Below are positions 21,698 through 26,342 of a stretch of 26,342 bases of DNA, in pieces. The notes under the pieces were generated by a model, which saw only the letters and a list, made by a program, of their open reading frames with translations, made no database searches and was not told where the DNA came from. Made by a program: the position numbers and the translations under genes. Numbering within the stretch: the stretch's first letter is position 1; the number at the start of each line of letters is the position of its first letter. This DNA comes from Flavobacteriales bacterium (lineage in GTDB: Bacteria > Bacteroidota > Bacteroidia > Flavobacteriales > BACL11): NCBI GenBank assembly GCA_018675825.1, contig JABGXK010000130.1:1-26342 (forward strand), written 5' to 3'.

Positions 21698-22090
21698 TTA
21701 TAAGTTTTTCTTAATTAATTTGGGGACATTATCTACAATTGCTAGTGATAATAATATCATTAGAACATCTAATAAGTCAAAAGTTCCTATATCAAAGAAT
21801 ATTTGTAAAAACTCAAGAAATACAAACCAAGAACTTAGTATAATTAATTTTTTTCTTTTCAACAGAAAACCTTTTGCTAAAAGCATAAATCCTAGATAAA
21901 AAAGAAAATCTATCAAGTAAAACTTAATAAAGTTGTTTTCTAATGGAATAAGTGTTCCATAATTTACACCTAATAATCTAAAAGCTATGATTTGATCTGT
22001 ATTTCTAAAAAAAACATATATCAGTAGCGCTAGAAATAGAAGTAGTAATGCAAGAAATACAACTCTATAATTAATTTTAGGTATTTCTAT
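21698..22090 (-). CDS. About 130-aa multi-TM protein resembling VanZ-like/DUF2809 proteins (no canonical start at the 5' end)
   Basis: The frame is stop-free from 22090 to 21698: IEIPKINYRVVFLALLLLFLALLIYVFFRNTDQ...YLIDFLFYLG...LEFLQIFFDIGTFDLLDV. The ORF track shows only the last 72 aa. Confidence 0.55.
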   Translation of the reverse strand: MEIPKINYRVVFLALLLLFLALLIYVFFRNTDQIIAFRLLGVNYGTLIPLENNFIKFYLIDFLFYLGFMLLAKGFLLKRKKLIILSSWFVFLEFLQIFFDIGTFDLLDVLMILLSLAIVDNVPKLIKKNL

Positions 22091-22293
22091 TTACCTGTTC
22101 CGTTACAAAATGAACATGTGTTTTCTCCATTTCCATTGCAAAATGTACAATTATAATCATTTGCACAATAGATACAATCAGATTTACCTGTTCCATCGCA
22201 ATAAATACAGCCTCCAGATCCTCCAGATCCTAGTGTTAAAGCACCAGAAGCAATTATCATACATCCAAATAGGTAGTTTTTGAATTTTTTCAT
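22087..22293 (-). CDS. 68-aa protein: signal peptide or anchor, GSGGSGG linker, DnaJ-type CxxCxGxG zinc finger
   Basis: CIYCDGTG, CIYCANDY, CTFCNGNG and CSFCNGTG; 8 Cys in the C-terminal 40 aa. Confidence 0.75.
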   Translation of the reverse strand: MKKFKNYLFGCMIIASGALTLGSGGSGGCIYCDGTGKSDCIYCANDYNCTFCNGNGENTCSFCNGTGK

Positions 22294-22417: not shown

Positions 22418-23233
22418 TTAATTTTCTTGATTACTAGATTCATTCATGATGATTTGATAATTGTTTAAAATTGCACCAACTAACAAGTTTAGTAATAGAA
22501 AGGCTGATACTACATACCAGAGTACATGAAAAAAAGTAATGATCCATGGTGGGGCAACAACCAAACCTTTATTGCTAGCATCTATTAAATTATATCTAAT
22601 ATCGGTCCAGTCTTCACCTGTTAAAACTCTAAATAAAGTAAACATAGTCTCACTAAGATTACCATATGGATCTGGTGATACTACAGGTGCATTTGGCGTG
22701 TCTTTGAAATACTCTAATAAAGTTATTTTTGTTTTATCATCTGCATTCTCTACAGTCGGAAGTTTAAACAACGAAACTCCAATAATTCCAAATAGATACA
22801 TGAAAATTAGAAAAAATATAAAGTTATAAAAGAGAGCGTTGAGTGATTTCCATAATACCGCTACGATAAGCTTTATTCCTTTATTTGATTTTAATAAACG
22901 CATAACTCTAAATACCCTTAAGATCCTTAGAGTTGTTATTGTTCCTGCATTTTCAAAAAGAGTCTCTGGAACTAAACAAATTAGCACAATAGATAGATCA
23001 AAGCAATTCCATCCACTTTTAAAATACTCACTATTATTTTTGCTTGCTGAATATCTAATAATTATTTCCAAAACAAAAATTATTAGTGCTATAAGCTGAA
23101 TTAGTTGAATTAATGAGTTTGTGAAATATGTTTCAACACCAATAAGAGCACAATTAATTAAAATTACCAGTAATATAGATTGCTCAAACCTATCAGATAA
23201 GATTAATTTTTGGCAAATTCTTTTCATAATCAA
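22418..23233 (-). CDS. Single-domain 6-TM voltage-gated cation channel (Ion_trans; BacNav/Cav-like), filter TGEDWTD
   Basis: S1 INC, S2 LEIIIR, S3 WNCFD, S4 RILRVFRVMRLLK, P-helix TLFRVLTGEDWTD, S6 LLLNLLVGAI. Confidence 0.92.
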   Translation of the reverse strand: MIMKRICQKLILSDRFEQSILLVILINCALIGVETYFTNSLIQLIQLIALIIFVLEIIIRYSASKNNSEYFKSGWNCFDLSIVLICLVPETLFENAGTITTLRILRVFRVMRLLKSNKGIKLIVAVLWKSLNALFYNFIFFLIFMYLFGIIGVSLFKLPTVENADDKTKITLLEYFKDTPNAPVVSPDPYGNLSETMFTLFRVLTGEDWTDIRYNLIDASNKGLVVAPPWIITFFHVLWYVVSAFLLLNLLVGAILNNYQIIMNESSNQEN

Positions 23234-23272
23234 ATTATTTCAACAATAATATAGGATTTTAGTATAATTAGA

Positions 23273-23569
23273 CTAAAAATCACCTTCTTTTATAAATATA
23301 CCATCAGACATTTTTCCTTTACGATCTTTTATGTCATTCCATGCCCTCTCAAGGCACTCTTGAAGACTTAAATTATTTCTTTCTGCAATATTAATTAGCA
23401 CTACAATCATGTCTCCAATATCATCCGCAATATCTTTCCCCCTACAAATGTTATCACTTAATTCACCTGCCTCTTGCATTAGCTTGCAAAACTGGTCTTT
23501 GTCACTTGCGCCTTCAATTAGATTTCTATCGTAGTGCCATTGGGCAACTTTTTCTATTAGATTGTTCAT
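23273..23569 (-). CDS. MazG-like all-alpha nucleoside triphosphate pyrophosphohydrolase
   Basis: WHYDRNLIEG, KLMQEAGEL, DDIGDMIVVL and AWNDIKDRKGKM..GIFIKE match the short MazG-like family common in phages and marine bacteria. Confidence 0.85.
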   Translation of the reverse strand: MNNLIEKVAQWHYDRNLIEGASDKDQFCKLMQEAGELSDNICRGKDIADDIGDMIVVLINIAERNNLSLQECLERAWNDIKDRKGKMSDGIFIKEGDF

Positions 23570-23573
23570 GTTT

Positions 23574-23771
23574 TTAATTATTTTTTTTTGCTAAAAAAAA
23601 GTATAAAACGAAACCTGATAAGAGAGCATACCATCCTTTACGACTTCCTTTAAATATCTCTTCAAAATTCACAAAATCAAATCCAGATTCATTTAACCAT
23701 GATAATACCGCAAACATGATTCCAAAGCTTGAAAGTAATAACCATAAAACCTTACCTATTTTATTTTCCAT
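23574..23771 (-). CDS. 65-aa hypothetical 2-TM membrane protein
   Basis: Two hydrophobic helices with basic termini, its own TATATTTG box, and a 4-nt gap to the MazG-like gene. Confidence 0.7.
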   Translation of the reverse strand: MENKIGKVLWLLLSSFGIMFAVLSWLNESGFDFVNFEEIFKGSRKGWYALLSGFVLYFFLAKKNN

Positions 23772-23786
23772 TTATTTTATATCTAA

Positions 23787-23794
23787 CAAATATA
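23787..23794 (-). promoter_or_regulatory. -7 box (TATATTTG) for the 2TM / MazG / channel unit
   Basis: Exact match 15 nt before ATG 23771. Confidence 0.6.
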
Positions 23795-23878: not shown

Positions 23879-24463
23879 TTGAATAAAAAATATTATATAG
23901 AAAAAAAAGATCTTGATTTATTACCTGAATCATATAAGTCTTTAGCTGTTATTTATGCTAGTAATTATGATCTAATACAGTCTAAACAGAAGCTGGTTAT
24001 TGATTTAAATGATAGAATTACACAAGAAAATATTGAATTGTCCAATCTTAATAATGCTAATAATATATTATATAATCAACTAAAATTTATTAAAAAAAGT
24101 TATGTACCTAAAGTGTATTTAAAGGTATACAAGAAGAAAAATAATTCACAATTATATGTTCATGTTATAATAAAATATTTTAATGTTTCTAAAACAGTTT
24201 ATTTGGGAAAGAGAGATGTTATTATTACTAAATTGTCAGATAAGATTAAGTCCTTTAAAATTAATAACTTTTCTAAAAAACTTAAAAGTTATTTGCAGCC
24301 TATTGTAAGGCTTTACTGTACTCGTTTTACTAGTCAATCTAGTTTTATTAATTCTAAAATTAATTCAACTATTCTTTTTACAGATTTTGATAGTTCAGTT
24401 ACTAATGTTGATGATAAATTTAGCTTTAGTGATTATTTAAGATCTTTATCTGCTTCAGATTAA
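23879..24463 (+). CDS. Hypothetical basic protein (coiled coil plus Lys/Tyr-rich beta region)
   Basis: 194-codon open frame in very AT-rich DNA, TTG start, upstream promoter box, and a stop overlapping the S41 peptidase stop. Confidence 0.65.
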   Translation: MNKKYYIEKKDLDLLPESYKSLAVIYASNYDLIQSKQKLVIDLNDRITQENIELSNLNNANNILYNQLKFIKKSYVPKVYLKVYKKKNNSQLYVHVIIKYFNVSKTVYLGKRDVIITKLSDKIKSFKINNFSKKLKSYLQPIVRLYCTRFTSQSSFINSKINSTILFTDFDSSVTNVDDKFSFSDYLRSLSASD

Positions 24464-25998
24464 TTTGATGTTTGCATAATCTCTAATCCTTTTTTGACAT
24501 ATTTGTCATCCTCTATCATTATTCTGTAATAATCTTTATTCCCCCATAAATTTCTTGAAATATTTGCCATAACCTGCTTCTTTATAAATCTCATATCATC
24601 ATCCTTTATATTTTGATTAAAACTAGAATCTTTTTTATTGATATATGCAAGAAATTGATTATAGATAATATCCTCTATTTTGTTTATGTATTCTTTTCTG
24701 TTTGTTATTTTTTTAATATTCTTTCTGTTTAGATCAGAATATTTCATTGAAAATTCTCTAATCCATCCGTTTGCAATAATTTTATTTATTGTTTTATAGT
24801 CTAAGAATGTATCTTTTTCTATAATTATATCTGGATTTATACCGCCTCCACCAAAAACTATCCTTCCTTTTTTTGTTTTAAATTTTAGTGAATCTGGTAG
24901 TATTGAATCGTTTCTTAAATATTGCTCAAGATAATATTCATTTATGTTTCCGCCATAACTTTTTTGTATTGATCTTCCTGATGGCGTATAATATCGTTGT
25001 GTTGTTAATCTAATTGCTGACCCATCTTGAAGTTTAATTTCTTCTTGAACCAAACCTTTCCCAAATGATCTTCTGCCAATAATAGTTCCCCTATCATTAT
25101 CTTGTACTGCTCCAGATATAATTTCAGATGCTGATGCTGAACCTTCATTAATTAAAACTACCAATTTAATATCCTCTAGTAATCTACTACTGCTAGCAGC
25201 TATTTTTGTTTCTTCTCTATTCCTTCCTTTTGTGTATACAATAGGATCGCCATCAATTATGAAATGATCACAAATATTTATTGCTGCGCTTAAATATCCT
25301 CCTGGGTTATCTCTTAAATCAAGTATTAGTTCTTTCATACCTGCTTCTAGGAGTTTAGTCGTTTCTTTAGTAAATTCAGAACTTGTTTTAGCTGAGAATC
25401 TATTTAGCTTTAAGAAGCCAGTTGTTTTTGTAATCATCATAGAGACATCCACACTATTTAATGGAATGGTATTTCTAATAATTTCAAATTCAATTATTTG
25501 CTTTATATTTCTTCTTTTTACTTTGATGTTTACTGTTGTGCCTTTCACCCCCCTAAGTCTTTTGACTACACCGCTATTTTCAATACCTATTCCCGCAATA
25601 TTGATGCTATCCACTTCAATTATACGATCTCCTGAAAGGACCCCTAATTTTTCAGAAGGACCTCCGTTGATAGGAGAGACTACAACTATTGTGTCTTCAA
25701 TAATATTAAACTCTATCCCAATTCCGCTGAAATCCCCTAACATGTTTTCTTTTACTGCCTGATAGTCTTTTTGAGGTATATATGTAGTATGTGGATCTAG
25801 ATCTTTTAAAATAGAATTAATAATATTTTCTTCAAAATCTTCACCTATACTATCAACATAATGAGAATTAATTAGTTGTAGTATAGCATTTATTTTATCT
25901 TCTTCGTGATTCTTATTTTTTTGAGTAATATTATTTCCTATTACTATACCTATAATAATTAATAATGAAATTACTATAGGTTGGTATTTTTTGTTCAT
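24460..25998 (-). CDS. S41A carboxyl-terminal processing protease (PDZ plus S41)
   Basis: LDPHT, GIGIEF, DLRDNPGG, SASASEI, SFGKGLVQ and YYTPSGRSIQ motifs. Confidence 0.93.
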   Translation of the reverse strand: MNKKYQPIVISLLIIIGIVIGNNITQKNKNHEEDKINAILQLINSHYVDSIGEDFEENIINSILKDLDPHTTYIPQKDYQAVKENMLGDFSGIGIEFNIIEDTIVVVSPINGGPSEKLGVLSGDRIIEVDSINIAGIGIENSGVVKRLRGVKGTTVNIKVKRRNIKQIIEFEIIRNTIPLNSVDVSMMITKTTGFLKLNRFSAKTSSEFTKETTKLLEAGMKELILDLRDNPGGYLSAAINICDHFIIDGDPIVYTKGRNREETKIAASSSRLLEDIKLVVLINEGSASASEIISGAVQDNDRGTIIGRRSFGKGLVQEEIKLQDGSAIRLTTQRYYTPSGRSIQKSYGGNINEYYLEQYLRNDSILPDSLKFKTKKGRIVFGGGGINPDIIIEKDTFLDYKTINKIIANGWIREFSMKYSDLNRKNIKKITNRKEYINKIEDIIYNQFLAYINKKDSSFNQNIKDDDMRFIKKQVMANISRNLWGNKDYYRIMIEDDKYVKKGLEIMQTSN

Positions 25999-26342
25999 TT
26001 CAATAAGTCTAATTTTTTAACTTGTTTTATTGTAACTCCAGCTTCTTTTAAAAAATCTAATCCTGATGTGTCTTTGTATTGGTCTATATAAACTAATCTT
26101 TTAATACCTGCTTGGTGAATGAGTTTACTACAATCTTTACATGGTGAGAGAGTCAGATACAATGTAGCTCCAGAGCAGTTGTGGTTTGATTTTGCAGTTT
26201 TTAAAATTGCATTTGCTTCTGCGTGTAAAACATACCAGTGAGAAATACCTTTGTTATTTTCACAAATATTATTAAAACCAGTTGGGGTTCCATTATATCC
26301 ATCAGATATAATCATATTATTTTTTACTATTAGTGAACCAAC
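25995..26342 (-). CDS. dCMP deaminase family protein (5' end outside the window)
   Basis: VGSLIVKNNMIISDGYNGTP, HAEANAI and PCKDC; the frame stays open to the window edge. Confidence 0.92.
   Translation of the reverse strand, partial: VGSLIVKNNMIISDGYNGTPTGFNNICENNKGISHWYVLHAEANAILKTAKSNHNCSGATLYLTLSPCKDCSKLIHQAGIKRLVYIDQYKDTSGLDFLKEAGVTIKQVKKLDLLK

Follow-up and report, generated by a model that had tools for sequence, protein, structure and literature searches.

The origin of Ca2+ selectivity in the voltage-gated channel superfamily is still debated, and to our knowledge CavMr of Meiothermus ruber (selectivity filter TLEGWVD) is the only native prokaryotic Cav that has been reported. We studied a 26,342-nucleotide stretch of DNA from a Flavobacteriales bacterium (the whole stretch is called the window here), in which an original prediction, made from the letters alone, had placed a prokaryotic voltage-gated channel with a filter like that of domain II of eukaryotic Cav channels. 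The locus raises the question of whether its product is a native bacterial calcium channel, and of what its likeness to Cav means for their ancestry.

The channel gene and its voltage sensor

The ORF list and a reading of the reverse strand showed that the predicted ORF, 22418..23233 in the minus strand, exists and is intact. An ATG at 23227 gives a protein of 269 aa whose length and N-terminus agree with those of homologues; an alternative in-frame start, the TTG at 23233 two codons upstream, would give 271 aa. Position 23227 is the likelier start because the 269-aa length and the first Met match the nearest homologues. The gene so defined occupies 22418..23227 (-), i.e., 269 codons followed by the stop codon at 22418-22420, consistent with the ORF list, the translation, the Ion_trans match and the homologue start. 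The Pfam model PF00520 (Ion_trans) matched residues 14-260, spanning S1-S6, with an E-value of 4e-43 and 147.8 bits (cut-off 25). The NCBIfam search gave sub-threshold matches only (TRP and a Methanococcus K channel), and therefore no model specific to this family is present there. The protein-atlas look-up returned "ion transporter, Bacteria" for the channel, and homologues are labelled "ion transporter" or "voltage-gated sodium channel" in the databases. A scan for promoters and terminators showed nothing above the shuffled expectation. The opposite-strand ORF 22539..22829 (+) was rejected as a real gene, its few matches being shadows of the channel gene in related loci.

An AlphaFold2 (AF2) model, obtained with a 57-member family alignment as input, had a pLDDT of 89.5 and presented six transmembrane (TM) helices as well as the helices P1 and P2. 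In it, S1-S4 are followed by the S4-S5 linker with S5; the S5-P1 loop contains an extra helix (164-176), after which come P1 (191-202), the filter, P2 (207-219) and a long S6. Top Foldseek matches in the PDB were NavMs, NavAb, CavAb, NaChBac and a CatSper subunit (TM scores of 0.62-0.72, 20-31% identity). Together with the Ion_trans match and the length of 269 aa, these results define the channel as one 6TM domain with the BacNav fold, complete as a single-domain voltage-gated channel in agreement with the original prediction; with a single domain in its polypeptide it is not a four-domain Cav.

All segments lie in the minus strand. S1 (residues 12-32, 23132..23194), delimited by the AF2 helix and by conservation, has nearly invariant N25 and E32. 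S2 (residues 38-61, 23045..23116) carries F51, E54 and R58 of the charge-transfer centre, as supported by AF2, conservation and the BacNav/Cav alignment, and S3 (residues 65-84, 22976..23035), located by sequence, conservation and AF2, carries W73-N74-C75-F76-D77. In the voltage-sensor helix S4 (residues 94-114, 22886..22948), read directly and supported by conservation, a basic residue occupies every third position; the run R-x-x-R-x-x-R-x-x-R-x-x-K (R101, R104, R107, R110 and K113) falls exactly at 22927..22889. Every element of the predicted sensor was thus found in place: the S4 run, Glu in S2 (E54) and W-N-C-F-D in S3 (residues 73-77). Across the 57-member family alignment F51, E54 and D77 were invariant or nearly so, R101 was invariant, and R104, R107 and R110 were at least 90% conserved; the sensor residues also matched those of BacNav and Cav domains column for column. 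Because the sensor is complete and conserved, the channel is presumably gated by voltage.

A conserved filter and an enlarged turret

The minus-strand codons ACA GGT GAA GAC TGG ACC GAT, exactly at 22621..22601, encode T203-G204-E205-D206-W207-T208-D209, so the filter reads TGEDWTD as the original prediction had it, with three acidic residues and distinct from the Na-type TLESW. Its columns, supported by direct reading, homologue conservation and alignment, line up with TLEDWTD, TLESWSM and the TGEDWNV of Cav domain II. The identity of LTGEDW with domain II of eukaryotic Cav1/Cav2 was confirmed in the supplement sequences of PMC7041947, in domain II of P0224, a four-domain protein of Cav type (TGEDWNV), and in papers quoting LTGEDWN; the AnclNav data set of PMC7041947 has TGEDW in eukaryotic Cavs only and in no bacterial sequence.

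Of the candidates scored in a homology search of 5.8 billion clustered proteins, 922 were homologues at E<=1e-5, and the best 120 (55-99% identity) were examined for the filter. TGEDWTD was present in 110 of the 120, TGDDWTD in seven and single-residue variants in three, with one SGEDWTD; the motif is not a product of chance, given these 110 homologues. When 1.84 billion cluster representatives were scanned exhaustively with HMMER, the motif persisted down to 40% identity as TGEDWTD, TGDDWTD, SGD/EDWTD and TGDDWT/SN, and was lost in two divergent family members. The 57-member alignment showed W207 to be invariant and T203, G204, D206, T208 and D209 to be at least 90% conserved; the S6 Asn (N247) and S-P-D-P-Y-G just before P1 (P187 invariant) were conserved as well. 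This survey of the motif, which the original prediction had proposed, establishes TGEDWTD as the signature of a large family. Two metagenomic members had unusual architectures: P0122 (414 aa) has an extra partial voltage-sensor copy (S1-S4) ahead of the complete domain, and P0125 (428 aa) has lost the TGEDW motif and carries a long, repetitive, acidic C-terminal extension.

The scaffold around the filter also sets the family apart. The S4-S5 linker and S5 (residues 116-154, 22766..22882) form one helix in the AF2 model and are followed by an extended S5-P1 turret (residues 155-190, 22658..22765; AF2 pLDDT 78-91), which includes the predicted helix 164-176 and S-P-D-P-Y-G. After P1 (residues 191-202, 22622..22657, from AF2) and the filter come P2 and the P2-S6 loop (residues 210-226, 22550..22600), where AF2 and residue counts indicate a loop about 8 residues longer than in BacNavs. 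S6 starts at residue 227 (22421..22549) and contains the invariant N247; only 12 residues follow Y257, and conservation, AF2 and counts agree on a tail that has no neck or coiled coil. Residues were counted between aligned anchors in the channel, its family, 34 bacterial BacNav/AnclNav-like channels and single domains of eukaryotic channels. From S5 (F154) to the filter Trp there were 52 residues in the channel and in the family median, against a median of 26 (25-30) in the bacterial channels and 44.5 in eukaryotic domains. The distance from the filter Trp to the S6 Asn was 39 in both the channel and the family median, 31 in the bacterial channels and 37 in the eukaryotic domains. After S6 (Y257) the channel has 12 residues as compared with medians of 31.5 (9-177) in the family, 48.5 (32-82) in the bacterial channels, whose tails include the coiled coil, and 22 in the eukaryotic domains; in turret and tail the protein is therefore not a canonical BacNav. 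The outer loops of the family are of eukaryotic length and have no Cys pairs.

Three traits thus separate the family from the BacNavs: Gly in place of Leu/Phe before the filter Glu, a turret about 26 residues longer and, in this protein, no C-terminal coiled coil, which is often absent in the family. As marks of the family the turret and the missing coiled coil, neither of them noted in the original prediction, count as much as the filter.

Profile searches gave the same division. The comparison set consisted of single-domain channels from 400 sampled Bacteroidota genomes and 400 of a second phylum, presumably Pseudomonadota, with the filters TLEDWTD, TFEDWTD, TLEGWxx, TFDDWAA and TLESWSM. Channels with the NavPp-type filter T[L/F]EDWTD scored 145-165 bits against the family profile and those with the NavAb-type TLESWSM 97-114 bits, both aligning in two pieces; profile positions 160-184 were skipped in every BacNav-like match. 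Single domains of eukaryotic four-domain channels reached up to 120-137 bits in one continuous alignment, and PDB chains repeated this pattern; the best-scoring eukaryotic domain was usually III, not II. Three TLEDWTD AnclNav-like channels from Bacteroidota genomes (L008, L009 and L010, in G164, G023 and G184) have two conserved Cys in their P2-S6 loop, which recalls the disulfide-containing L6 of CavMr. When a TLEGWAD channel of Ignavibacteria served as the seed of a further homology search, all the relatives obtained were above 73% identity.

Ion selectivity of the predicted pore

We propose that the gene encodes one subunit of a homotetrameric, depolarisation-activated channel of NaChBac/NavAb architecture. 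Its pore motif matches animal calcium-channel domain II and makes it a candidate native bacterial calcium channel; the reading that we favour, with a probability of about 0.5, is that it is natively Ca2+-permeable or Ca2+-selective. S1-S4 would act as the voltage sensor through the four Arg and one Lys of S4 and the charge-transfer centre F51, E54 and D77, and S5, P1, the filter, P2 and S6 would make up the pore. We assume that the tetramer assembles without a coiled coil. Its four subunits would then contribute a ring of four Glu at the HFS site, four Asp directly above it (HFS+1) and four Asp at +4, i.e., 12 acidic side chains in the filter, on a Gly that would open extra space at the filter base. 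The likeliest consequence would be high-affinity binding of divalent cations in the pore, with Ca2+ permeation favoured over pure block. The enlarged turret could alter access to the pore. The physiological role might be a depolarisation-triggered entry of cations in marine and gut bacteria.

Strong binding of divalent cations by the filter is likely by analogy, because of what has been reported for NavAb with Asp at HFS+1, for NavPp and for NavAb L176G; on the same analogies we put Ca2+ permeation at about one half. NavAb with Asp at HFS+1 alone (TLEDWSM) had its PCa/PNa raised about 100-fold, the same Asp makes both NavAb and NaChBac Ca2+-selective, and one-domain channels with Asp or Gly at this "beacon" site have been classed as Ca2+-selective (PMC10120453). 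NavPp (TLEDWTD) is Na+-permeable and shows low-affinity block by extracellular Ca2+, which persists in its T6S and T6A filter mutants, and it gained no Ca2+ permeability from the filters of Ca-selective BacNavs (PMC7041947); the original prediction was mistaken in calling it Ca-permeable. NavAb L176G, which has the same Leu-to-Gly change, acquires partial block by divalents/Ca2+ and not Ca2+ permeation because Gly opens a cavity under the filter where hydrated Ca2+ lingers, and Ca2+ selection in the BacNav group does not come simply from added negative charge (PMC10349818). Sequence-based rules therefore conflict (PMC10120453 versus PMC7041947 and PMC10349818), and the accompanying caution that selectivity cannot be read from sequence alone was right.

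The alternative that fares best, possible although less probable than Ca2+ permeation, is a voltage-gated Na+-permeable or monovalent channel whose acidic, Gly-containing filter binds external divalents and is blocked as in NavPp, so that Ca2+ would regulate the current and not carry it. NavPp behaves in this way and resists conversion by Ca-selective filters, NavAb L176G acquires the block, and among bacterial channels those with T[L/F]EDWTD come nearest to the family in profile score. However, the family does not lie inside the T[L/F]EDWTD group (see below) and its pore scaffold differs in the turret and the P2-S6 loop, so the behaviour of NavPp need not transfer; the Ca2+ selectivity that Asp at HFS+1 confers on NavAb and NaChBac also speaks against this alternative.

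Phylogeny, genomic context and likeness to known channels

The phylogenetic tree comprised 84 rows. The family supplied 25 of them and bacterial BacNav/AnclNav-like channels (<70% identity) another 34; the others were the separate domains, four apiece, of six eukaryotic proteins, including one with the classic Cav pattern (TLEGW/TGEDW/TFEGW/TGEAW), and a Kv-like channel of the same genome as outgroup, which had a very long branch. Loop columns filled in fewer than 60% of the rows were dropped, leaving 260 columns for IQ-TREE under LG+C20+F+G4 (PMSF). Eukaryotic sampling was thin (six proteins), and the tree was built without the named NaChBac, NavAb, CavMr, NavPp, CatSper and EukCat sequences and without the Bacillus BacNav group. 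In the maximum likelihood tree the TGEDWTD family was monophyletic (100/100), as were the bacterial group (98/95) and the eukaryotic domains (99/98). The comparison with BacNav/AnclNav-like channels and Cav domains that the original prediction had suggested thus resolved the family as a clade of its own, outside all 34 sampled NavAb-like and AnclNav-like channels of this tree, which excludes the Bacillus group; family and bacterial group were together on one side of a branch supported at 99/98. In this tree, which has no named CavMr or NavPp, the family did not group with the TLEDWTD, TFEDWTD or TLEGW channels of Bacteroidota/Pseudomonadota. An AU test weakly rejected its union with the T[L/F]EDWTD group (p = 0.037), a value to be read with care since that group was chosen after seeing the tree. 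Eukaryotic domains II and IV of all proteins grouped together, apart from the family. Like the TGEDWTD family, domains II and IV have Gly before the filter Glu. In a quick tree the prokaryotic channels attached beside domains II+IV and not beside I or III (SH-aLRT 97), which may be an artefact of rooting on the long Kv branch.

The original prediction had offered the channel as a possible model for Cav ancestry. It is unlikely that, among prokaryotic channels, the whole family stands nearest to the eukaryotic four-domain stem, ahead of BacNav/AnclNav. Grouping it with all eukaryotic domains was not rejected by the AU test (p = 0.27, 10.9 log-likelihood units), and the family has in common with domains II/IV that L5 and L6 are long and that a Gly precedes the filter Glu, but the best tree joins the family with BacNav (99/98), the root depends on one very long Kv branch, and the loops share neither Cys pattern nor sequence with eukaryotic loops. 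The fuller proposal, that the family is both this closest living relative of the Cav/Nav stem and a second, independent native lineage of prokaryotic voltage-gated Ca2+ channels (with a homotetrameric 4 Glu/4 Asp filter on a Gly backbone and a eukaryote-like turret), appears more doubtful still. Specific kinship with Cav domain II, through a bacterial ancestor or a eukaryote-to-bacterium transfer of a single domain, is highly improbable: the identical LTGEDW, the eukaryote-like loop lengths and the full-length alignment of single eukaryotic domains at 120-137 bits would agree with it, but the constrained tree was 33 log-likelihood units worse and rejected (AU p = 0.0155), the free tree places the family with the bacterial channels (99/98), domains II and IV group with each other, and the top-scoring eukaryotic domain is usually III. 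On the same AU test we also rejected a direct origin of the family from Cav domain II. Thus, as regards Cav ancestry, the tie to domain II falls while one to the whole four-domain stem is left unrejected, and the LTGEDW identity is best read as convergence or a shared ancestral character state, not as specific descent.

Relatives of the channel are encoded in 325 stretches among 185,579 species (one genome per species). The closest ones (68-71% identity) were in uncultured marine Flavobacteriales metagenome-assembled genomes (MAGs) from ocean surveys, some sharing neighbouring genes with the window, so that the placing of the channel in a flavobacterium holds broadly. Further carriers were Crocinitomicaceae, many Akkermansia MAGs, Elusimicrobium, Endomicrobia, Dysgonomonas, Alistipes, Rikenellaceae, Prevotella, Muribaculaceae, Paludibacteraceae, Ignavibacteriae, a Succinivibrionaceae MAG and single Gammaproteobacteria and Nitrospiraceae MAGs. 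Members are rare: apart from the window's own genome, one of the 400 genomes sampled from the window's phylum had one, and in the second phylum, where 113 of 401 genomes had BacNav-like channels, none of 400 did apart from the seed genome. Such scattered occurrence in several phyla suggests horizontal transfer.

The window's genome is a 1.7-Mb MAG, 76% complete, and its only other Ion_trans gene encodes a Kv-like 6TM channel (contig C117, 1447-2250 (+), locus L002) with a T-V-G-Y-G filter and, in its C-terminal tail, two C-x-x-C pairs resembling a zinc ribbon. Among 80 related loci no neighbour was conserved with the channel beyond local synteny with the closest Flavobacteriales MAGs, for which reason we do not read the locus as an operon or "system". 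Shared neighbours occur in the four closest loci (L013-L016) alone: the S41 (C-terminal processing) peptidase with a PDZ domain at 24460-25998 (-) and the dCMP/cytidine deaminase at 25995-26342 (-). Downstream of the channel by 124 bases, a 68-aa protein (22087-22293 (-)) shows a hydrophobic signal-like N-terminus and then a Gly-rich linker, with four C-x-x-C-x-G-x-G-like repeats that recall DnaJ-type zinc fingers; Pfam gave no match for it, and none of the 80 related loci has a homologue of it near the channel. There is next to no likelihood that the channel works as one unit (22418-23794) with the 65-aa two-TM microprotein and the 98-aa MazG-like protein encoded upstream at 23273-23771 (-), which lie in the same strand with gaps of 45 and 4 bases, the latter protein with a weak MazG match (E = 3.7e-4, below cut-off), since in the 80 related loci no homologue of either lies within 6 kb of the channel, not even in those Flavobacteriales loci (68-71% identity) where the S41 peptidase and the deaminase recur.

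No paper with TGEDWTD or describing the clade was found in the searchable literature, which covers few subscription journals and leaves absence unproven; to that extent the subfamily is not already characterised, and we regard it as a distinct, so far uncharacterised prokaryotic clade of voltage-gated channels. Hundreds of species fix a filter joining three features that had each been studied only by mutagenesis or elsewhere: Gly at position 2 (NavAb L176G), Asp at HFS+1 (the Ca-converting mutation of NavAb/NaChBac and the "beacon" of Cav domain II) and Asp at +4. This would be of real interest to channel biophysicists, and outer loops of eukaryotic length on a small predicted homotetramer are attractive for structural work on the Cav outer vestibule. 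With carriers among marine Flavobacteriales and among gut MAGs of Akkermansia, Alistipes and Prevotella, one may ask what voltage-gated cation entry does in such bacteria. Some carriers are in culture (Elusimicrobium posterum, E. simillimum, Parelusimicrobium proximum, Hugenholtzia roseola, Dysgonomonas spp. and Flavobacterium sp. PL11), so the question of selectivity is directly testable, and whatever the selectivity proves to be, setting the family beside NavPp singles out what one Leu/Gly position does.

Among known systems, NavPp and the AnclNav channels (Shimomura et al. 2020, PMC7041947) have the same single 6TM domain and the same S4 and charge-transfer residues. Six of the seven filter positions are the same in NavPp (TLEDWTD), position 2 being Leu there (Leu/Phe in the AnclNav type) and Gly, at least 90% conserved, in this family; the predicted ancestral AnclNav filter, T-L-E-D/S-W-T-D, also has Leu at the site of this Gly. 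AnclNav-like channels with T[L/F]EDWTD are the top-scoring bacterial relatives, yet they have 25-30 residues between S5 and the filter Trp instead of 52, a P2-S6 loop 8 residues shorter and a coiled-coil tail that is absent here, and the family forms a clade separate from them. The canonical BacNavs and their derivative (NaChBac, NavAb, NavMs and the engineered CavAb) share the fold (TM scores of 0.62-0.72, 23-31% identity) and the homotetramer architecture predicted here, and CavAb (TLDDWSD) also has three acidic filter residues per subunit. The natural TLESW filter, short turret, C-terminal neck and four-helix coiled coil of canonical BacNavs are all missing from this channel, and these BacNavs reach only 97-147 bits against the family profile, with a poorly aligned pore half. 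The likeness to CatSper is known here from fold matches only. CavMr resembles our channel in being native and homotetrameric (the tetramer is predicted here), with an acidic, Gly-containing filter and an extended extracellular loop L6 (PMC10120453). It differs in having the Gly at position 4 (HFS+1) instead of 2 and eight net negative charges per tetramer as compared with the predicted 12, and CavMr-like TLEGW channels fall inside the sampled BacNav clade, this family outside it, in a tree that has no named CavMr sequence. Domain II of Cav1/Cav2 (LTGEDWN) has the identical LTGEDW, with Gly before the filter Glu and the "beacon" Asp after it (PMC10120453), and similar loop lengths; since it is one of four non-identical domains in one chain, a Cav pore has a single Asp at HFS+1, whereas four are predicted in this channel.
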